Below, in pieces: positions 56 through 45,749 of a stretch of DNA of 59,911 nt. A model generated the notes under the pieces. The model saw only the letters and a list, made by a program, of their open reading frames with translations. It had not been told where the DNA came from and did no database searches. The stretch spans positions 1 through 59,911 of the forward strand of contig JAQTLZ010000005.1 of assembly GCA_028714635.1 (NCBI GenBank), given 5' to 3'. Source of the DNA: Minisyncoccota bacterium (GTDB taxonomy: Bacteria > Patescibacteriota > Minisyncoccia > Phycocordibacterales > JAQTLZ01). Position 1 is the first letter of the stretch. Each line of letters begins with the position of its first letter. Made by a program: the position numbers and the translations under genes.

Positions 56-180
56 AAAATTTGTTAAATTGTGAGCAATTCGAGGCGGGAGGGAGAAGTG
101 CGTCTGAGCTGTAGATGACCTACTGCGAGGATGCCTTCGATCCGAACCAACGATGAAGTGCTCCGATTTTACAAATTTTT
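56..180 (-). repeat. palindrome-closed ~120-nt element abutting the rpsZ stop codon (homolog of 22938-23059)
   Basis: Closing stems aaaatttgt (57-65) / acaaatttt (171-179) and gagca / tgctc. Shares cgaggcgg, aagtgcg, agctgtag, ctac.gcg and ccaacga blocks with the fusA copy. Confidence 0.6.
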
Positions 181-365
181 TACCATGATGATTTCTTGAT
201 ACCTGGAATCATTCCCTCGTTAGCAAACTCTCGGAAACAAATTCGGCACATATCGAAATCTCGCATATAGCCGTTCTTTCGTCCGCATCGAAAACATCGT
301 CGAACAACTCGAGATGCAAATTTTGGCTTCTTTTTTGAACGCGCAACAACTGATGTTTTGGCCAT
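180..365 (-). CDS. rpsZ: 30S ribosomal protein S14, zinc-ribbon type Z (61 aa)
   Basis: Short S14 with CxxC...CxxC (RCFRCGR, MCRICFRE) and GIKKSSW tail. Lies in the spc-operon position after rplE. Confidence 0.95.
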   Translation of the reverse strand: MAKTSVVARSKKKPKFASRVVRRCFRCGRKNGYMRDFDMCRICFREFANEGMIPGIKKSSW

Positions 366-490
366 TTTGAACAGCTTATGACTTTCAGAGAAAGCCGATT
401 TCTTTAATAAAACGCTTTAGGGGCTTATCCGTTGCATTCTAGGCAGATACTACTTTTAGACGCTGGAGTATGATTGCATCTAAGAAAAGC

Positions 491-596
491 CTCCACCTTA
501 CAGGTGCTGTACACCTTTTCGGTTTTTTCTTCGTGAGAGCACTCGAAAAATCCTGAAAAGGTCTTGCTCCGACGGTACCTACCATCGGCTCACCTT
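491..596. ncRNA. candidate structured RNA motif, three hairpins, copy 1 (in the putative rpsZ leader)
   Basis: P1 cacct-tac-aggtg (494-506), P2 acctttt...aaaaggt (513-562), P3 ccgacggt-acct-accatcgg (569-588). All three stems are compensated in copy 2. Confidence 0.5.
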
Positions 597-627
597 GCAA
601 ACAAAAAAGCCTAAAGGGCTTGGGGCT

Positions 628-656
628 ATACTAGCAAAGGGTTTTATCGCTGTCAA
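628..656 (-). promoter_or_regulatory. sigma70-like promoter, TTGACA-N17-TAGTAT, upstream of rpsZ
   Basis: Reverse complement of 651-656 is TTGACA and of 628-633 is TAGTAT. Lies just downstream of the terminator of the inserted gene. Confidence 0.6.
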
Positions 657-714: not shown

Positions 715-2154
715 TCAAATTCCGCAACTAACCTGGTGGATCTTCGCTCGTGTTATTGGACCCACAAATCCAGTTGGACTAATACCATTGGCTTTCTGAA
801 AATCTTTGACTGCCTGGAAAGTCAACATACCGAAATATCCAGTTGGTTCTGAACTGAGATATCCTTTCGATTGCAAGAAGTCTTGCAAGGAAGAAACTTC
901 ACCGTTAGTGGATATATCTCGTGACTGATAGCGAAGATCATAAGTAAGAACAACACATGAAGAGGAGGAAGCTTGGGTATCTATATCAGCGGTTCCCGCA
1001 TTGTGAGCAGTATCAGCATTGGTATTTTCATTGCAAGGATGTCCCGTCCTTGGATTAAAGCGGAATCCTGGTTCACATCCCACCGAAGAATCTGGAGGAG
1101 GTACAACTGCAGGAGGTATCGCTGATCGCGCGACAACCGAGAAAGAATCACTGTTGTCACCTGTTGCACCAGCGCCGCTGAATTGGATTTGATATCCAGA
1201 ACTCGGGACGACATCTCCCGGCACAGTCCAACTAAACCAGTCTTGAGTAGCAGTATTAACTGTCCCGAGAGAGCGGCTACCATTCGATCCAAGTGCGCCC
1301 CCCACCAAATAAACCGAGTAACTTGTAACCCCGACATCTCTTCCAGACCACAGAAGTTTATAAATCATTCCCTGTTTCAGAGTGGCTCCGGCGGATGGAT
1401 ATGTCACAGTAAAGGGATACAGATTTTGATTAGTGCTTGCCGCAATCGAAAATGATGAGCTATTATCACCAGTAGCGCCAGCGCCACTAAACTGGATTTG
1501 ATAACCTGATTCAGGTGGGATATTTGAAGGAACTGTCCAACTAAACCAATCCTGATTCTCTGTGTCTACAGTACCAAGATAGCGGCTTCCATTTGAACCT
1601 AAACTTCCTCCAACCAGATACACAGAGTAGCTCCTAACTCCATTATCTCTTCCAGACCACATGAGTTTGTAGGTTGAACCTTGATTCAAGGTCGCTCCAG
1701 AAGAAGGAAACGTTACTTTGAAAGGATTTTGTGGCTGGTTAGGGATTATTGTTACCGTCCTAGAAACAGAATTTATTCCATAAGCAGACAGTAAAAGTCC
1801 CTCATTAATATTTTGAGAGGTATTATTTGTAAATACAAGATCCGTTGAATATTCGCCCGAAGGGAAATATCCATTCGTACCACCAGCTCCAATATCTCCG
1901 CAACTAAAAGGATGCAGTTTGCCAGCATCATCTCGCATCTGGATTATAAGCCCCTCATGACAATCAGCTGTTACTGTCACACCTTGTGCTGTCACATCAG
2001 AAAACGCATAAGAAACATTAAACGCATTCGGATATGATTCAGGGTTGTATGATGCTGTAGAAACAGTAAATCTTACAACTGTCGCTTGAGCAGAGACAGA
2101 TGATACAACCACAAAAGAAGCTAGAATAGTAAGTCCTACTAGATATTTTTTCAT
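715..2154 (-). CDS. secreted repeat protein with C-terminal peptidoglycan-binding (PG_binding_1-like) domain
   Basis: N-terminal signal peptide (ILASFVVVSSVSAQA). Two 103-aa tandem repeats, a Cys loop (CEPGFRFNPRTGHPC), and a C-terminal LQDFLQSKGY...FGMLTFQAVKDFQKANGISPTG motif. Confidence 0.8.
   Translation of the reverse strand: MKKYLVGLTILASFVVVSSVSAQATVVRFTVSTASYNPESYPNAFNVSYAFSDVTAQGVTVTADCHEGLIIQMRDDAGKLHPFSCGDIGAGGTNGYFPSGEYSTDLVFTNNTSQNINEGLLLSAYGINSVSRTVTIIPNQPQNPFKVTFPSSGATLNQGSTYKLMWSGRDNGVRSYSVYLVGGSLGSNGSRYLGTVDTENQDWFSWTVPSNIPPESGYQIQFSGAGATGDNSSSFSIAASTNQNLYPFTVTYPSAGATLKQGMIYKLLWSGRDVGVTSYSVYLVGGALGSNGSRSLGTVNTATQDWFSWTVPGDVVPSSGYQIQFSGAGATGDNSDSFSVVARSAIPPAVVPPPDSSVGCEPGFRFNPRTGHPCNENTNADTAHNAGTADIDTQASSSSCVVLTYDLRYQSRDISTNGEVSSLQDFLQSKGYLSSEPTGYFGMLTFQAVKDFQKANGISPTGFVGPITRAKIHQVSCGI
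1108..1725 (-). repeat. in-frame tandem duplication, 2 x 309 nt (2 x 103 aa)
   Basis: PFKVTFPSSGATLNQG...QIQFSGAGATGDNSSSFS aligns with PFTVTYPSAGATLKQG...QIQFSGAGATGDNSDSFS. Confidence 0.85.
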
Positions 2155-5712: not shown

Positions 5713-5720
5713 GTTTTTGA

Positions 5721-5803
5721 TTAGGGTTTAGGGTAAAGGGTTGAGGGTTTAGGATTTTGGTTTCAGTGTTTTCTATACCCTGTCCCCTTCACCCTCTACC
5801 CTA
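5721..5803 (-). repeat. heptad-periodic hairpin filling the rpsS-rplV spacer (TTAGGG-like arm plus complementary CCCT arm)
   Basis: GGG recurs every 7 nt at 5724, 5731, 5738 and 5745, with GG at 5752. The C-rich arm at 5775-5803 pairs in the same 7-nt register. Confidence 0.7.
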
Positions 5804-7144: not shown

Positions 7145-7774
7145 ATGAAAAAGAGAGATTACAAAAATAGTGCGGAGGGTACTTTCGTGCATGTTTACAA
7201 CAGAGGAAATAATCGAGAGAAAATTTTTCATGATGAAAAGGACTACAAAGCTTTCGCTTTTCGAGTCGGACTCGCCCTAGGCATTGAAAGAGAAACTCTT
7301 CAAAAAGAAGACCTGCTGTCATTCCCCCACTCTCGAATTAGAATCAATGCAGGAGCTGATCTCTTCAAACTTCATTCATTTTGTCTCATGCCAAATCATT
7401 TCCATTTATTGATTGAACAATGCGGAGAGACAGAAATAGCAAAAATCATTTCCCAAATATCCACGAGCTATGCGATGTATCTCAATAAAAAATATCATAG
7501 AGTCGGGCATGTATTTCAGGAGAGATATAAAGCTGTAGTCATCGAATCCGATCCGCAACTCCTTTGGACTTCATCTTATATCCATATGAATCCGGTCAAA
7601 GCAAATATCGTAAAACACCCTGGTGAATATACATGGAGCAGTTACCAAGATTTTACAAAGAAAAGAAACTTACCGATTATCCACACAGATTTTTTACTAC
7701 CAATGTTCGGAGCGAAAGATTTCGAAAAAGAGACACTTGCCCTCTTTCTGAAATCCGAAGAATCCCCTTATTAG
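7145..7774 (+). CDS. REP-associated tyrosine transposase (IS200/Y1 HUH family, RAYT-like)
   Basis: HUH motif (NHFHLLIE) and catalytic Tyr region (SSYIHMNPVKA). Flanked on both sides by the same 21-bp palindrome. Confidence 0.85.
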   Translation: MKKRDYKNSAEGTFVHVYNRGNNREKIFHDEKDYKAFAFRVGLALGIERETLQKEDLLSFPHSRIRINAGADLFKLHSFCLMPNHFHLLIEQCGETEIAKIISQISTSYAMYLNKKYHRVGHVFQERYKAVVIESDPQLLWTSSYIHMNPVKANIVKHPGEYTWSSYQDFTKKRNLPIIHTDFLLPMFGAKDFEKETLALFLKSEESPY

Positions 7775-7789
7775 GATTAAGGGCCCGAG

Positions 7790-11329: not shown

Positions 11330-11731
11330 TTAGAGGATTTTGACGTCGATATCTACACCACTTGGGAGGTTCATATTGGTCAAAGCCTCGATGATCTTCC
11401 CTGACGGATTCAAGATATCAATAAGTCTCTTGTGGACTCGCATTTCGAACTGTTCTCGTGCATTTTTGTACACGAACGCAGAGCGGTTGACTGTGTATTT
11501 ATTTATTTCTGTTGGAAGCGGAACGGGGCCAACAACTTTCGCATCGTAGCGAAGAGCAGTGTCGATGATCTGCTTTACCGAAAGATCGAGAATTTTATAT
11601 TCATATGCTCGAACTCGGATGCGCAATTTTGAGATCGCGCCATCTTTTGGAGCGGGAGATACTTTGACTGCTTTCTTCGCAGACGCTCTCTTTGCAGGAA
11701 CTTTCTTTTCTGTTGTTTCTTTCACAGCCAT
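11330..11731 (-). CDS. rpsJ: 30S ribosomal protein S10 with ~30-aa basic N-terminal extension
   Basis: KLRIRVRAYEYKILD...GPVPLPT...HKRLIDI motif. Confidence 0.95.
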   Translation of the reverse strand: MAVKETTEKKVPAKRASAKKAVKVSPAPKDGAISKLRIRVRAYEYKILDLSVKQIIDTALRYDAKVVGPVPLPTEINKYTVNRSAFVYKNAREQFEMRVHKRLIDILNPSGKIIEALTNMNLPSGVDIDVKIL

Positions 11732-11736
11732 TTGAA

Positions 11737-11756
11737 TAGGGTTTAGGGTAAAGGGT
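11737..11756 (-). repeat. 20-nt TTAGGG-like tract in the tuf-rpsJ spacer, identical to 5722-5741
   Basis: tagggtttagggtaaagggt is identical at both loci. Each copy ends 6-10 nt upstream of a ribosomal-protein start codon. Confidence 0.7.
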
Positions 11757-11762
11757 GTAGGG

Positions 11763-12953
11763 TTAGGCGATGACTTTCGTTACAACTCCGGCACCCACAG
11801 TCTTGCCTCCTTCTCGGATAGCAAATCGCTGTTGATCTTCAAGAGCAATCGGAGCAACCAATTTTACTTTGAAAGTAATCGTATCTCCTGGCATAACCAT
11901 TTCTGTCTTTTCTGGCAAAGTCACTTCTCCAGTCACGTCTGTTGTTCGGAAGTAGAACTGTGGCTTGTAACCAGTGAAGAACGGAGTATGTCGTCCGCCT
12001 TCTTCTTTCTTCAAGATGTACACTTCTGAAGTAAATTCTGTGTGAGGAGTAACTGAACCTGGCTTTGCGATAACCTGACCTCGGTGTACGTCTTCTTTTC
12101 GAGTACCTCGGAGCAAAATTCCAGCGTTGTCTCCTGCCATACCTTCTGAAAGCTGTTTGTTGAACATTTCAATACCAGTCACAGCAGTCTTTGCTGTTGG
12201 CTTGATACCAACGATTTCAACTTCCTCTCCAACTTTCACCATTCCTCTTTCAATTCTTCCAGTCACTACAGTACCTCGTCCTTCAATCGAGAAGATGTCT
12301 TCGATAGGCATAAGAAAAGGCTTGTCTGTTTCTCGCTTTGGAACTGGGATATAGGTATCAAGAGCGTTGGTGAGTTCAAGAATTTTCTTTACCCATTCAT
12401 CGTCTTTTGATGTTGCTTCAAGAGCTTTGAGTGCTGAACCTCGAATAACAGGAGCTCCTTTTCCATCAAAGCCTTGCTTTGTAAGGAGTTCTCGAACCTC
12501 TTCTTCAACGAGGTCTACGAGATCTTTGTCATCAACCATGTCTACTTTGTTTAGAAAGACGATGATCTTTGGCACTCCAACCTGCTTTGCGAGGAGAACG
12601 TGCTCACGAGTCTGTGGCATCACTCCGTCAGTAGCTGCGATAACGAGAATAGCACCGTCCATTTGTGCGGCACCGGTGATCATGTTCTTAATATAGTCGG
12701 CGTGTCCAGGAGCGTCGATGTGAGCGTAGTGTCGAGTTGCTGTTTCGTATTCGTTGTGAGAGAGGGCGATCGTAATACCTCGGGCCTTTTCTTCAGGCGC
12801 TGAGTCAATTTCGTCAACTTTTTTCAACTTCACTGTTTGTCCAGAGAGATGAAGTGAGTTAAGAATTGCCGCAGTAAGAGTTGTCTTCCCGTGGTCAACG
12901 TGACCGATGGTACCGACGTTTACGTGAGGCTTCGAGCGATTAAATTCTGCCAT
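11763..12953 (-). CDS. tuf: elongation factor Tu
   Basis: [23 protein letters not shown] and NKVD motifs. Start moved to MAEFNRSK at 12953, since the ORF-track start adds 19 non-homologous residues. Confidence 0.97.
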
Positions 12954-13165: not shown

Positions 13166-16100
13166 CTAGAACCCTAAGAGATGCCCGAAGGATTCAAGAA
13201 CCGAAGCGACACTACTGGTAGTCGGAGCAACGGAAAGACTTGTCACATTGAAGACTGCTGTATTAGTAAATTGAGCAGTTCCTCCTATATAGACCTTGAT
13301 TACATACGAACCAATTGGGGCACCAGTGGGAACTTGGAATGTAACATTATTACCATTAACCGTACCAGTAACAGAACTATAATTTCCAAAATAGACTGTT
13401 CCATAAGGGAACGCCACCGGACCATTAATCGTAACCATTGTTCCTGGATGCCCTGACCCTGGTGAAATAGAACTGATTGAGGGCGTTGCTGGCGTGGTAA
13501 CAGGAGGAAAACTCTTTCTAATACCAACATTCCCTGAATTATCTATGGGATCAATCGAGAATGTATAGGTAACACCCGCTGTTAATCCCGTCACATTCAT
13601 GCTCCCGACAGGACCGCTAATCTGATTTCCATTAACACTACTGTTAGGCGAACTTGTTATCTGGTAGTTCACAGTACCTCCGGAATTATCGCTTGCTCCG
13701 CTCCAATTCAAGGTCAAACTATTTGATGTTACGTTGGAGGTGGTAAAGGTGGAAGAGCCCGACCAGACAGGAGCCGTTGTGTCTGCAGCGGGACCCACCG
13801 TAATATTGACATACTTGTATACACCATCAGCGCTGTGAATTGTCAGCATTCCACTGCCGGTAGCAGTTGGAGTGTAAGTTCTTGTTGCAGCACCTGCGGT
13901 TCCTCCGATAGTTCCTGAAACAGATGAGGTAAAGTAGTCGAAGGCAGGTTGTGGAGAAAGGGCGACGCCAGATGCATTTTTTGCAGTGAATGTATATGTG
14001 TATGTCGTATTTTGTGTGAGACTGGTTGATCCTGCTACGTCGATGGAGGCGGTGGTTGGACAACCCGTAGTCGTCGCCGTAACCGTCTTTGCAGGAGAGC
14101 TGACATTGCCAGCACCATCAGTGGCTGTGATCGAGAAAGTATACGTTGTACAAGCGGAGAGGCTTGCAACACCAGTCCCACTATTCGAAGCGCCATTAAA
14201 AGTAAGGGTACTGCCGGTACCGCTCGGAGAACGGGTGATGGTGTAACTTGCGACTCCACTACCACCAGTGTTGTCGGTTGCTCCGCTCCAATAAAGTGAG
14301 AGACTATTGTTGCCTATACCTGAAGCAGTAAAGCTTGTAGGAGAAGTGGGCGCAGTGACGTCGGCACCTCCACCTGTAGCATTCACCGTAATTGTTTTAG
14401 AATTACTGCTGTTCGTTCCACCAATAATAGAAACCGACAAACTATACGTGCCCGCTACAACTGCTGGAATGGTGTAGCTTAGAGACGTCCCGTTTGCTGA
14501 GGAAGCTTGAGTTTGGTAGGGCGTTCCGTTGGCAGTATTTACGAGGGTTATCAAGTTTGGGTGAGCCGCGTCAGTGGAAAAATTAGTACCGCTAATGACC
14601 GCAGGTGTCGCTACTCCCGCTGTTACCGATGTTGGGGAAACGGAAGTGATGGTTGGAGCTGAGGGCGTAGTGGTAATCGTCACCGTCTTCGAATCTGTAA
14701 CCGTTCCGTATGATCCGGTACACGTGATGGTGTATGTCTTTGATTGCGTGAGGAGACCTGTATAAATACCAGTAGAATTGTAAGTTGCACCTGATGTAAC
14801 CGATCCGTTCGCTGTAGTAAAGTTGGTTCCCGTACATGAAGTGACGTTGGAAGATGTCCAAGTGAGATACGTTCCATTTCCAGATGGCAGTGAACTTGCT
14901 GCGACGGTCAGGGTGACGGAAGGGGTTGGTGTACCGGTAGCATTCACCGTAATTGTTTTAGAATTACTGCTGTTCGTTCCACCAACAATAGAAACTGACA
15001 AACTATACGTGCCCGCTACAACTGCTGGAATGGTGTAGCTTAGAGACGTCCCGTTTGCTGAGGAAGCTTGAGTTTGGTAGGGCGTTCCGTTGGCAGTATT
15101 TACGAGGGTTATCAAGTTTGGGTGAGCCGCGTCAGTGGAAAAATTAGTACCGCTAATGACCGCAGGTGTCGCTACTCCCGCTGTTACCGATGTTGGGGAA
15201 ACGGAAGTGATGGTTGGAGCTGAGGTAGCGTTCACCGTAACAGTTGCAGTATCACTTTTACCGCCAGAAGAAGCTGTCACCGTTACCGTACGCGCAGTCC
15301 CCGGAGCTGTGAGAAGTCCTCCACTTGAAATAGTCCCCGCAGTCGTAGTCCAAGAATAGGCGGGTTGTGTAGATAACGCGTGGGTAAACTGGTCTAAGGC
15401 AGTTGCAGTAAATTGCTGGGTTCCGTTAACTGTGACACTAGCAGTTTCTGGAGTAACAGAGATAGAAGTAAAGACTTGAGCTGCGTTTGACACCGTAACT
15501 TCTTTTGTACCGATTATCGTTCCGGAATAAGCGCTCACTGTCACCGGAAGTGACGTGCCCGTTATACTTGAGGGAGCTCTAAAGAGACCGCTTGAGTTAA
15601 TTGTCCCCCCAGTCGCATACCAAGTGAACGAGGACGGCTGTGTGCGAAGATCATTATTTTTCTGATCTTTCGCAGTTGCGGTAAATTGTATTGTTCCATT
15701 TGTCCCAACAGTAAGGCTCGAAGAAGTTGTTAATTCGATAGAACTGAAAACGGGTGTGTAGGAACCGCCACTATGACCACCACTTCCACCGCCACCTCCG
15801 CCACCACTACCACCTCCCGAAGCTACACAAAGAGAACCACTTAATGGGCTGTATTTTGTTGTAAGCGTACAGCCAGCTGGGAGCGAAGCGAAACAACTTG
15901 CACCAGTTATATTATTGAACAACGCGCCCCCACTGCATGGACCAGTTCCTCCTCCCGGCAATGACACGCACGCAAAACCAGTCAGCGTGCTATAGCCTGA
16001 AGCGCTGGTACATCCTGGCGGGAAATTTCCTGAAACTGTTCCACCAGCTTCAAAGTCTCGAATCACTGCTTCTATGGTCAGAGGACCAAAGAGAGAAGTT

Positions 16101-16378
16101 ACGTGAACGAGGTAAAGGAGTTTTTTACCAATGAGAATAGTTTGGAGAGCCGGGACAGTAGTGACTCCGTACTTCTTCAATGTCAGAGCTTTGGTCAGAG
16201 GACCAAAAGGACCGACAACACCAGGAGGAAGAATGCTTGCTTGGTAAGCGTGAATTCTTGCATCCGAAACTGCCGCGTGTACTGGCAAAGCAAATGAAAA
16301 AGCGAGCGCGGCTAGCGCCAAAATTCCTCCTATTATTGCAACGATTCTTGCTGGATTAACAGCGTGTGAATGACTCAT
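13166..16378 (-). CDS. giant secreted surface protein with PG-binding-like N-domain, Cys loops, Gly linker, Ig-like (Big_2/IPT-like) and FN3-like modules; ends in VLESFGHLLGF
   Basis: Signal peptide ending VHA-AV. Repeated Ig/FN3-like sequence patterns (LSLYWSGATDN...YTFSITATD), an internal 96-aa duplicated module, and a conserved C-terminal tag. Confidence 0.85.
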   Translation of the reverse strand: MSHSHAVNPARIVAIIGGILALAALAFSFALPVHAAVSDARIHAYQASILPPGVVGPFGPLTKALTLKKYGVTTVPALQTILIGKKLLYLVHVTSLFGPLTIEAVIRDFEAGGTVSGNFPPGCTSASGYSTLTGFACVSLPGGGTGPCSGGALFNNITGASCFASLPAGCTLTTKYSPLSGSLCVASGGGSGGGGGGGSGGHSGGSYTPVFSSIELTTSSSLTVGTNGTIQFTATAKDQKNNDLRTQPSSFTWYATGGTINSSGLFRAPSSITGTSLPVTVSAYSGTIIGTKEVTVSNAAQVFTSISVTPETASVTVNGTQQFTATALDQFTHALSTQPAYSWTTTAGTISSGGLLTAPGTARTVTVTASSGGKSDTATVTVNATSAPTITSVSPTSVTAGVATPAVISGTNFSTDAAHPNLITLVNTANGTPYQTQASSANGTSLSYTIPAVVAGTYSLSVSIVGGTNSSNSKTITVNATGTPTPSVTLTVAASSLPSGNGTYLTWTSSNVTSCTGTNFTTANGSVTSGATYNSTGIYTGLLTQSKTYTITCTGSYGTVTDSKTVTITTTPSAPTITSVSPTSVTAGVATPAVISGTNFSTDAAHPNLITLVNTANGTPYQTQASSANGTSLSYTIPAVVAGTYSLSVSIIGGTNSSNSKTITVNATGGGADVTAPTSPTSFTASGIGNNSLSLYWSGATDNTGGSGVASYTITRSPSGTGSTLTFNGASNSGTGVASLSACTTYTFSITATDGAGNVSSPAKTVTATTTGCPTTASIDVAGSTSLTQNTTYTYTFTAKNASGVALSPQPAFDYFTSSVSGTIGGTAGAATRTYTPTATGSGMLTIHSADGVYKYVNITVGPAADTTAPVWSGSSTFTTSNVTSNSLTLNWSGASDNSGGTVNYQITSSPNSSVNGNQISGPVGSMNVTGLTAGVTYTFSIDPIDNSGNVGIRKSFPPVTTPATPSISSISPGSGHPGTMVTINGPVAFPYGTVYFGNYSSVTGTVNGNNVTFQVPTGAPIGSYVIKVYIGGTAQFTNTAVFNVTSLSVAPTTSSVASVLESFGHLLGF
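14376..14664 (-). repeat. 289-bp intragenic direct repeat, copy 1
   Basis: Identical to 14937-15225 except for two substitutions. Encodes the IPT-like module PTITSVSPTSVTAGVATPAVISGTNFS... Confidence 0.9.
14937..15225 (-). repeat. 289-bp intragenic direct repeat, copy 2
   Basis: Offset by 561 nt (187 codons) from copy 1, with 2 mismatches in 289. Confidence 0.9.
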
Positions 16379-44490: not shown

Positions 44491-45609
44491 TCAAGCTTTT
44501 TCTAAAGCTTGAATGCCCGGCAAAGTCTCATTTGCAAGGAATTCAAGCATCGCTCCGCCCCCCGTCGAGACGAAAGAAAATTTATCAAAAAGATCGAGCT
44601 CTCGGATTGCCGCCAAAGTATCTCCCCCGCCAACAATCGCTTCCACCCCGCTTTTCACAATCGCTTTCGCGAGAACGAACGTCGGCTCCTTGAAACCTTC
44701 TTCATATTGACCGAGCGGACCATTCCAAAGAATGAACTTTGCTTCTTTGATTTTCTTTTCCAAAATTTCATCTGTCTTCGGTCCAGCGTCCGTCATTTTT
44801 TCCTCTTTTGAAACCGCGTCAGGCGCTTCCACAGAAATTTTTCCCGCATTCTCCACCGTCACATCCTCCGGCAAGATGAGTTTTGGATTCTGAAGTATCG
44901 AAGAAAAATCAATCTTTTCTTCCGAAACCAAAGACTTCCCCGTCTCGTATCCTTCCGCTTTGAAAAGATCGTTCGCAAGTGCACCTCCGATGAACACTGT
45001 ATCAGCGAGTTTTAGAAATTTCTCTACAAGAGGCAATTTGGTTGAGAATTTTGCTCCAGCAAGAATGAAAAGAAATGGATGCGGAGGGTTGAAAGCTCTC
45101 GAAAGATTTTGTACTTCTTCTTCCAAAAGAAGTCCGGCGAACGAAGGAAGATATTTTGGCACTCCGACGATAGATGCGTGGGCGCGATGAGAAGCGGAAA
45201 ACGCTTCGTTCACATAGATTTCTCCGAACTCTGACAAGTCTTTTGCAAATTTTTCGTCATTTGTTGTTTCACCTTCATATCTCCTCACATTCTCTAACAA
45301 AAGAAAATCTCCTTCAGAGAGATTATTATAAATATCTTTTGCTGATTGATCGTAAATATCTTGCGCGAATGAAATTGAGAAAGTTTTTTTCAAATATTCA
45401 AAAACGGGGAGAAGCGTTTTCTCGGTGCTTTCAATGTGACTCATAAGCACAACTTTTGCTCCTTCTTTTTGCAAATACAAAAGAAGCGACAATGTTCTCT
45501 CTATTCGATAATCATCCGTAATACTATTCCCAGAAACAGGAACATTGAAGTCGCACCGGACCAAAACTTTTTTTCCTTTTAGCTGTCCGGCTTCTCGAAT
45601 AGACTTCAT
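44491..45609 (-). CDS. pgk: phosphoglycerate kinase
   Basis: VLVRCDFNVP, SHRAHAS and GGGDT motifs. True start is MKSIREAG at 45609; the MPFFTNR extension comes from a repeat element. Confidence 0.95.
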   Translation of the reverse strand: MKSIREAGQLKGKKVLVRCDFNVPVSGNSITDDYRIERTLSLLLYLQKEGAKVVLMSHIESTEKTLLPVFEYLKKTFSISFAQDIYDQSAKDIYNNLSEGDFLLLENVRRYEGETTNDEKFAKDLSEFGEIYVNEAFSASHRAHASIVGVPKYLPSFAGLLLEEEVQNLSRAFNPPHPFLFILAGAKFSTKLPLVEKFLKLADTVFIGGALANDLFKAEGYETGKSLVSEEKIDFSSILQNPKLILPEDVTVENAGKISVEAPDAVSKEEKMTDAGPKTDEILEKKIKEAKFILWNGPLGQYEEGFKEPTFVLAKAIVKSGVEAIVGGGDTLAAIRELDLFDKFSFVSTGGGAMLEFLANETLPGIQALEKA

Positions 45610-45739
45610 CCTGTTAGTGAAAAATGGCATCGCTCTTTGGAGCGGCTATGCCATTCTCATTATTTACCGCTGTTAAATTCAACCGTTTCATATTTTTGAA
45701 TATTTTATGATTTGCTCCAATGCCATTTTCTACTACGGG
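45610..45739 (-). mobile_element. hairpin-ended element copy B (130 bp, no ORF), abutting the ATG of pgk
   Basis: The terminal ~26 nt on each side are near-identical to copy A. Flanked by a 7-bp direct repeat ACTTCAT (45603-45609 and 45740-45746), which is ATGAAGT on the gene strand. Confidence 0.8.
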
Positions 45740-45749
45740 ACTTCATTGA

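Follow-up and report, generated by a model that had tools for sequence, protein, structure and literature searches.

A family of three-hairpin structured repeats dispersed among genomes of Paceibacteria

Repetitive extragenic palindromic (REP) sequences are short hairpins, each located after a conserved GTAG, and are compensated, strand-specific, present in many copies, sometimes clustered and mostly extragenic. To our knowledge, REPs make no long target duplications and no in-frame gene insertions. An element of three hairpins was found twice in a 59,911-nucleotide stretch of DNA (contig JAQTLZ010000005.1 of the Minisyncoccota bacterium assembly GCA_028714635.1), the whole of which is termed the window below, and belongs to a previously undescribed family of ~90-110-nt structured repeats specific to the Paceibacteria (Parcubacteria, Candidate Phyla Radiation (CPR)). 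Other described systems close to it in behaviour are the Rickettsia palindromic elements (RPE), which are non-coding structured repeats located in intergenic regions, in-frame in conserved protein genes and in RNA genes with no known mobilising enzyme, and the Yersinia YPAL and the RU-2 elements, whose targets lie at or beside dyad symmetries and whose target duplications vary in size, 3-26 bp in YPAL (PMC2229807).

The regions 489-597 and 29668-29762 of the window are two copies of one element consisting of three helices (P1, P2 and P3) and invariant linkers. An earlier inspection of the letters alone, hereafter the sequence-only reading, had laid out both regions as P1, CTGTAC, P2, CTTGC, P3 and CTCAC with stems that change in sequence yet stay paired, and this layout was borne out by alignment of the two copies. 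A 24-mer (CCTTACAGGNGCTGTACACCTTTT) had exactly 2 occurrences in the window versus 0.00 expected from shuffles, and the three hairpins folded in both copies and on either strand with z-scores of -2.6 to -7 relative to shuffled controls. A covariance model from other genomes gave exactly two matches within the 60-kb window, namely the two copies already noticed, and a chance likeness between them is excluded. The P2 helix of copy 1 has the invariant ACCUU/AAGGU base and a tandem G.A-type GAG...CGAA at its tip.

A covariation test was undertaken on a model-derived alignment of 123 copies, with shuffled and slid-register controls. Standard pairs filled 93.3% of pair cells versus 72.6% in shuffles and double changes were present at 21 of the 22 pairs; the observed values were reached by none of 500 shuffles, and slid registers were 35-56% paired. 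P1 was 98% paired with double changes at all 5 of its pairs. The consensus on the minus strand of the window reads (R)(R)G-UGA-G[P3]C-GCAAG-ACCUU[P2]AAGGU-GUACAG-NNNCU-GUA-AGNNN, in which the joints are invariant and the three helices are free in sequence while paired. Conservation ends sharply on the 3' side at the end of P1 and fades on the 5' side through a purine-rich stretch. The three-helix structure is proven by covariation and one defined strand folds. On the window's minus strand G.U combinations numbered 44 versus 11 for A.C, the model strand folded better by ~5 kcal/mol in 110 of the 123 copies, and the element strand was that of adjacent tRNA genes in 33 of 35 cases. The single P3 mismatch in copy 1, which is a G-U pair on the minus strand, had been taken to favour a minus-strand RNA weakly, and that preference is correct because of the G.U excess, the better folding and the strand shared with the tRNA genes.

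One genome per GTDB species was searched with a gapped pattern derived from the conserved joints, and at least 120 loci were identified, nearly all of which were in metagenome-assembled genomes (MAGs) of Paceibacterota, Parcubacteria, Kaiser-, Zambryski-, Nomura-, Lloyd-, Taylor- or Campbell-bacteria. A covariance model built from 84 copies was then used on the fetched loci (8-kb pieces, labelled with L-numbers), in which it found 155 covarying copies. A search of CPR genomes with such a model was among the checks proposed by the sequence-only reading, which had named as evidence against itself a failure to find further covarying copies or a hit to a known family or repeat. Many further covarying copies were found and the reading therefore passed its own test; no known family or repeat was matched, while the element does behave as a dispersed repeat, an outcome that the same reading had listed on the unfavourable side. 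One Kaiserbacteria MAG had 12 copies within six 8-kb pieces, and clusters and tandem arrays occurred (3 copies with a 160-nt period in L115). In the landfill metagenomes with the window, assembler word depth was 216-235 at the conserved P1/P2 joint versus ~25-45 in the flanks, and this joint was also present in a metagenome sample without the window genome. Pairs of copies that were more than 90% identical were 6 of 68 within genomes versus 1 of 7435 between genomes. A simple tandem repeat (GTAGTGAGTAGTTG) was located at 360-440 (minus strand) of L020 directly upstream of two adjacent element copies, and resembles the D-loop/element junction in which GGUAGAG is followed by UGAG.

Flanking direct repeats of at least 14 nt, and up to 91 nt, were present around 31 of 114 copies versus 5 of 114 in a reversed-flank control. 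The upstream repeat runs up to the element while the downstream repeat begins 0-50 nt after P1. These repeats rebuild the first ~12 codons of msrA, where the element lies after GCFWG (L080 and L115), the first codons of a glycoside hydrolase family 1 (GH1) glycosidase, where it lies after GFYWG (L008, with the same site in L079), the 5' 17, 25 or 43 nt of tRNA-Ser, tRNA-Asn/Phe and tRNA-Val, the first 8 nt and leader of tRNA-Met, and the 3' ends of tRNA-Leu, tRNA-His and tRNA-Phe. The junction was always a target G, GG, GGGG or GAG followed by the element's UGAG (e.g. ...UGGGG-UGAG and ...GAG-UGAG, the hyphen marking the joint). In L080 and L008 the decapitated upstream copy of the gene, judged by eye, stays open in-frame across the element and ends 3-10 nt ahead of the rebuilt start codon. 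Around about one fifth of the copies were long perfect inverted repeats of 14-26 bp that differed in sequence at each locus, and some of these (at L107, L092 and window copy 2) repeat the end of a neighbouring tRNA or gene in inverted form. A target duplication of 3 nt identical to the outer bases of P1 was also looked for by eye and did not hold generally.

Two further copies were located inside protein genes that no duplication rebuilds. The first is inserted antisense and in-frame in a threonine dehydrogenase gene and adds ~70 amino acids at a point where the alignment to PDB 2dfv is interrupted (residues 216 to 220), and the second is in the C-terminal linker of a ribonucleotide reductase gene.

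Relatives of the window genome differed in the presence of the element. In L126 and L127, in which the metallo-beta-lactamase (MBL) fold protein is 85-87% identical to that of the window, the MBL-rpmB spacer is an ordinary hairpin terminator with no element, and in a co-occurring strain from the same landfill metagenomes positions 29667-29771 of the window are replaced by a 26-nt plain terminator. L127 has a copy next to a superoxide dismutase (SOD) gene which the window is without, although the two SOD spacers do not align and provide no clean empty site. The rpsZ leader of L002 (GCA_028711065.1) includes a third variant with other compensated P1 and P3 sequences. The promoter and right flank of this leader are common to the window and L002, while the two copies lie on opposite sides of the stretch UUUUUGUUUGCARGGUG, which in L002 is located after the element, and are 14 nt apart. 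The P2 helices of these copies are nearly the same and P3 and P1 are unrelated. On both sides of the window copy lies AAGGUG microhomology to the 'empty' sequence of L002.

The ~200 immediately flanking proteins were scanned against Pfam and the top 25 of the 71-76 matched families were viewed. The flanking proteins of ~100 copies were unrelated housekeeping proteins including Hsp20, UvrD, MsrA, glycolytic enzymes, aminoacyl-tRNA synthetases, SecY and ribosome recycling factor, and no Pfam family occurred more than 3 times among these neighbours. Transposases, integrases and reverse transcriptases were absent from the viewed families of the flanking proteins, as was the Y1 transposase (RAYT) from the top 25. 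Of the flanking ORFs ~60% were co-oriented with the folding strand, as were 55% of the coding bases within 8 kb, ~40% of copies were antisense to flanking genes, and divergent, convergent and tandem spacers had copies equally frequently. Promoter-like sites were located upstream of 7 of 115 copies, the same as in controls, and give no sign of an own promoter. GC-skew in the 8-kb loci was confounded by gene orientation as a test of replication strand. A link to ribosomal-protein genes, or a dedicated cis-regulatory or small-RNA role, as implied by the sequence-only reading, gained no support, given the diversity of these housekeeping neighbours, the lack of the rpmB/MBL spacer copy in close relatives, the ~40% of antisense copies, the lack of promoter enrichment and the copies within coding sequences. 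Neither window copy is a specific regulator of rpsZ or rpmB, and nothing indicates such control.

Rfam 15 at the gathering threshold gave 0 matches in the window, scans of both copies at permissive E-values matched neighbouring terminators only, Rfam on 18 related loci returned tRNA, one group I intron and one L10 leader with none on the motif, and no tRNA or tmRNA was found in the window by ARAGORN. The earlier inability to match the motif to a known RNA family is upheld by these searches, and no description of the element in CPR was found in the full-text literature searched. P1 has a 5-bp stem capped by a GUA triloop, unlike the 7-nt tRNA anticodon loop with U33, and the would-be position 33 is variable (UC GUA GA, AU GUA AU) and paired with its partner. 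The flanks that look like tRNA are incomplete duplicates of tRNA genes nearby. A tRNA-Tyr-like anticodon arm (CUGUAAG) was considered for P1 and discarded, since base-pair covariation was seen at the flanking loop positions. Two pattern matches on viral contigs were discarded as chance, having no P1 or P3 and no model match.

The core was also found within larger junction RNAs of 170-260 nt in which the closing and side helices covary, as in the change from CGCGAG/CUUGUG to CGCGGA/UCCGUG. Larger versions were located at L007, L015, L016, L018, L026, L027, L032, L045, L047 and L107, often after a tRNA gene or terminator, with a closing helix around the three-hairpin core and an extra 5' hairpin (..GCCGGAG..CGAGGC) and 3' hairpin (CGCGAG..CUUGUGAC) with covarying pairs. 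A resemblance of these versions to RNase P, SRP, tmRNA, T-box or group II domain V had no support in Rfam and was set aside. A conserved 'pseudo-tRNA-Asn' was present before the real tRNA-Asn in L005 (5150-5330, minus strand), L023 (4880-5080), L117, L013, L024 and L017, in which the acceptor and D-arm are copied, the element stands where nucleotide 26 would be and a hairpin like an anticodon arm follows; the sequence of this copy tracks that of the real tRNA in each species. In L117 a group I intron (7531-7784; RF00028, 71.6 bits) lies inside the tRNA-Asn gene beside the element, and ARAGORN missed this tRNA-Asn because the intron interrupts the gene.

The family resembles RPE as a 100-150-nt structured repeat of reduced genomes that is intergenic, in-frame in protein genes and in RNA genes, with no protein encoded and no known mobilising enzyme, although it is from another phylum and the likeness is one of description rather than of sequence comparison. 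RPE form one long stem-loop with terminal inverted repeats, whereas the element of the Paceibacteria has three separate hairpins, invariant joints and no conserved terminal repeats, and its long gene-rebuilding target duplications are not described for RPE. With YPAL and RU-2 it has in common a small size, non-autonomy, the lack of TA termini, internal inverted repeats, variable target duplications and targets at or near dyad symmetries, but its duplications reach 91 nt, some of its target copies are inverted, and its architecture and taxon are different. The conserved G-rich joints before each hairpin (GUGAG, GCAAG and GUACAG, of a G-Y-R-A-G type), the compensated stems, the single folding strand and the many mostly extragenic copies recall REP and BIME sequences, which are mobilised by RAYT (an IS200/IS605-type Y1 transposase) and typically flank its gene. 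The element differs from them in that the unit is a triple of different hairpins in fixed order and orientation and that no RAYT-like gene was among the viewed families of flanking proteins. Classical MITEs (miniature inverted-repeat transposable elements; Correia/NEMIS, ERIC and RUP) are likewise small, non-coding, dispersed, structured when transcribed and sometimes located in transcripts. Their conserved terminal inverted repeats, fixed short and often TA duplications and related insertion sequence are all lacking here; inverted repeats, where present, differ per locus and direct repeats range from ~6 to 91 nt. A GUGAG-like 5' end and the location of some copies just after terminator hairpins recall group IIC introns, unlike which the element is ~100 nt with no domains I-VI, no Rfam match, no intron-encoded protein and with target duplications. 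A fixed series of three hairpins, invariant joints, the lack of conserved terminal repeats and unusually long variable duplications with filler set the family apart from RPE, YPAL/RU-2 and REP.

Somewhat better than even odds (a probability of about 0.55) are given to the reading that the element is a non-autonomous dispersed repeat which folds as a single strand and is closest in behaviour to Rickettsia RPE, Yersinia YPAL and REP. This reading is based on the many copies, the lack of consistent neighbours, gain and loss between relatives, insertions in genes, target duplications, the folding strand and the lack of a promoter. The one strand would fold as single-stranded DNA or as RNA, and new copies would be added by a duplicative, copy-in insertion. 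Joining after a target G, GG, GGGG or GAG represents microhomology to the GGUGAG start of the element, with insertion often accompanied by a direct (15-91 nt) or inverted (12-26 nt) target duplication. The long variable duplications, the filler and the inverted target copies agree better with template switching or priming on a single-stranded intermediate rich in hairpins than with cut-and-paste transposition; the single-stranded intermediate, the template switching and any enzyme are what we infer from these footprints. Surviving insertions would be those that leave genes intact, whether intergenic, in-frame in tolerant regions or with a duplication that rebuilds the gene or tRNA. Copy 1 would have inserted into the leader of rpsZ, just downstream of its promoter, and copy 2 would have replaced an ordinary terminator between rpmB and the MBL-fold gene.

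Several observations weigh against a dispersed repeat of this kind. No autonomous partner or mobilising enzyme was found among the flanking proteins scanned, neither conserved terminal inverted repeats nor a fixed-length target duplication is present in the family, and no exact filled/empty pair with an excision footprint was found among the relatives compared. The flanking duplications could be by-products of replication slippage induced by the hairpins after insertion. Identity between copies was 0.65 within genomes versus 0.60 between genomes and ~90% of copies keep perfect stems, and this divergence within genomes with intact stems resembles the outcome of long selection acting on every copy more than that of recent bursts. 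Even between very deep lineages of Paceibacteria the joints do not vary, several species have element positions in common (before tRNA-Asn, tRNA-Ser(GGA), msrA and GH1), and the strand shared with tRNA genes belongs here also. The runs holding the window locus are landfill DNA metagenomes with no RNA run among them.

It is possible, at well below even odds, that the element is a host-functional RNA module which is bound by a protein or acts in RNA processing or stability, is made in neighbouring transcripts or as the core of the 170-260-nt RNAs, and has spread only secondarily through segmental duplication and recombination. The very strong covariation with invariant joints in deep lineages, strand-specific wobble pairs, within-genome copies that are old yet intact, the tRNA co-orientation, arrangements upstream of tRNA-Asn and tRNA-Ser common to several species, a pseudo-tRNA that tracks the real one, larger junction RNAs with covarying helices around the core and the position of copy 1 downstream of a good promoter, and hence its sense transcription, all count in favour of such a module. 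The antisense copies and lack of promoter enrichment are less easily accommodated, as are the lack of a consistent neighbour and of an Rfam match, the one antisense in-frame copy inside a coding gene and the orthologous spacers of close relatives from which copy 2 is missing. A functional-RNA or DNA-structure reading is kept because of the divergent intact copies, the small number of within-genome pairs that look recent (6 of 68), the invariant joints, the shared positions, the tRNA orientation and the larger RNAs, and the mobile and functional readings are not exclusive because REP elements are both. A narrower functional role, in which an rRNA mimic bound by S14, S8 or L28 forms an autoregulatory leader or 3'-untranslated region (UTR) element controlling rpsZ and rpmB, is very improbable and contradicted by where the copies are found. 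It would account for the copies in the rpsZ leader of the window and L002 and for the copy that abuts rpmB. The element is, however, before rpsZ only in these two loci, is antisense to rpmB and missing beside rpmB in relatives, ribosomal proteins are rare among the ~200 flanking proteins of other copies, where the genes next to ~100 copies are diverse, and no Rfam ribosomal-protein leader family was matched.

An unusual terminator or attenuator cassette, or a structure protecting RNA 3' ends, that replaces hairpin-plus-U terminators also seems improbable, even though copy 2 takes the place of a canonical bidirectional terminator present in three relatives, UUUUUGUUUG comes after P1 in L002, and REP-like elements are generally known to stabilise upstream mRNA. 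In 121 copies the sequence beyond P1 was rich in purines and had no U tract, a terminator consensus scan of the window flagged the neighbouring hairpins and not the element, and copies are equally frequent in all spacer types and occur in leaders after promoters and inside genes. Similarly doubtful is a miniature intron, ribozyme or retro-element RNA with a group-II-like GUGAG start that is spliced, self-cleaved or reverse-transcribed and re-inserted in the manner of a bacterial short interspersed element (SINE). Such an RNA would explain the sharp 5' boundary at (G)UGAG and 3' boundary at the end of P1, insertion after G-runs would be compatible with priming on a ...CUCACCC-3' template end, variable long target duplications with filler are as in target-primed reverse transcription, and CPR genomes are generally rich in reverse transcriptases. 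Against it, the ~100-nt element starts with GUGAG and not GUGYG, lacks domains V and VI, had no Rfam match to a group II or other intron or to a ribozyme, and had no reverse transcriptase among the viewed Pfam families of its flanking proteins; splicing would not restore the pseudo-tRNAs, one copy is antisense and in-frame, and there is no 3' A-tail or equivalent. A slim chance is given to a new kind of mobile element, copied in from a folded single-stranded template (RNA or single-stranded DNA) primed on a genomic G-run, which would be a SINE-like retroposon or a replisome-dependent template-switch parasite whose insertions inherently duplicate tens of target bases and rebuild the genes they hit, and/or to the element being the core of a new tRNA-linked 170-260-nt RNA family in Paceibacteria.

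The genomes of Paceibacteria are among the smallest and most streamlined of bacteria, and no dispersed structured repeat was described for them in the literature searched. As the family is abundant, deeply conserved and outside Rfam, it will be mis-read as a riboswitch or small RNA in screens of CPR intergenic RNA; a description of the new family could be started from the covariance model and alignment. The element breaks and rebuilds tRNA genes and protein N-termini, makes pseudo-tRNAs and upstream ORFs, adds peptides to enzymes and replaces terminators, and by this rebuilding, peptide insertion and terminator replacement is a driver of small-scale genome change in Paceibacteria. The long, variable, gene-rebuilding duplications with no transposase seen nearby point to an insertion mechanism outside the well-understood ones.

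Features of the two element copies and of their surroundings in the window are listed in Table 1.

Table 1. Coordinates of the two copies and of adjacent features in the window
Feature	Position	Strand	Details
Copy 1, full covariance-model match	489..597	-	74.9 bits, E 3e-20; alignment to copy 2; fold
Copy 1 P1	494-498/502-506		CACCT/AGGTG, loop TAC
Copy 1 linker CTGTAC	507-512
Copy 1 P2	513-562
Copy 1 linker CTTGC	563-567
Copy 1 P3	569-576/581-588		One C.A mismatch; G.U pair on minus strand
Copy 1 tail CTCAC	589-593
Copy 1 joint GUGAG (593-589) and P3 (588-581 / 576-569, loop AGGU)	569..593	-	P3 pairs covary, 123 copies
Copy 1 joint (A)GCAAG (567-563) and long helix P2 (562-513)	513..567	-
Copy 1 joint GUACAG (512-507) and P1 (506-494; CACCU GUA AGGUG)	494..512	-
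Copy 2, full covariance-model match	29668..29762	-	87.9 bits, E 5e-24
Copy 2 P1	29673-29677/29681-29685		CTCCT/AGGAG
Copy 2 linker CTGTAC	29686-29691
Copy 2 P2	29692-29727
Copy 2 linker CTTGC	29728-29732
Copy 2 P3	29733-29754
Copy 2 tail CTCAC	29754-29758
Copy 2 joint GUGAG (29758-29754) and P3 (GAAAUGGG AAGGGA CCCAUUUC)	29733..29758	-
Copy 2 joint GCAAG (29732-29728) and P2 (29727-29692)	29692..29732	-
Copy 2 joint GUACAG (29691-29686) and P1 (CUCCU GUA AGGAG, 29685-29673)	29673..29691	-
Predicted sigma-70-like promoter (TTGACA, 17 nt, TAGTAT, TG-extended)	628..656	-	Would transcribe copy 1 and rpsZ; same promoter kept in L002
Small hairpin AAGCCCUUUAGGCUU then UUUUGUUUGC	607..621	-	Between promoter and copy 1
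rpsZ (S14 type Z), downstream of copy 1	180..365	-	PF00253
rpmB (L28)	29426..29666	+	PF00830
MBL-fold (ComEC-like) gene	30653-29775	-
Hairpin CGCGGUA...UACCGCG	29763..29788	+	Overlaps MBL stop codon; terminator-like for rpmB

The positions of the promoter (656-628) and of rpsZ (365-180) place copy 1 within a leader of ~255 nt, in agreement with the ~260 nt given by the sequence-only reading, and copy 1 is predicted from this arrangement to be transcribed within the rpsZ leader in its folding orientation. Copy 2 occupies the 108-nt gap between the convergent rpmB and MBL-fold genes, as had been described, and the gene coordinates agree. A distance of 6 nt separates the rpmB stop codon from P1 in copy 2, and the rpmB transcript would therefore bear the element in antisense form, such that copy 2 would be antisense in the rpmB 3' UTR and sense behind the MBL gene. 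The hairpin that overlaps the MBL stop codon has a 3' arm which repeats the 3' end of the MBL gene in inverted form and which is missing in relatives.

Other repeats and insertions were located in the window. A 136-nt quasi-palindrome (-51.7 kcal/mol, z -7.2 on the plus strand, antisense to the operon) at 44-180 in the rpsZ-rpsH spacer is missing in L002, which has a 16-nt gap, and in the co-occurring strain (joint 61 to 193), and is a second, different insertion-type repeat. The spc operon is split between rplE and rpsZ by a gene at 715-2154 (minus strand) which encodes a 479-aa Kre9_KNH / PG_binding_1 secreted protein and has its own terminator, while a different ORF of ~160 aa is at the same rplE-rpsZ position in L002. 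Intergenic G-rich short repeats of the TTTAGGGT type (TTTGATTAGGGTTTAGGGTAAAGGGTTGAGGGTT) at 5716-5770 and 11731-11764 were 91% alike. A 293-nt direct repeat (14372-14664 and 14933-15225, 99% identical) is located inside a 1070-aa ORF (13166-16378), which has further diverged repeat units in common with a neighbouring 862-aa ORF, and this organisation suggests that the 1070-aa ORF encodes a repeat-domain surface protein. The regions 28550-28687 and 45605-45740, which are 17 kb apart and before different genes, include two stretches of ~30-50 nt that are 80-97% identical.

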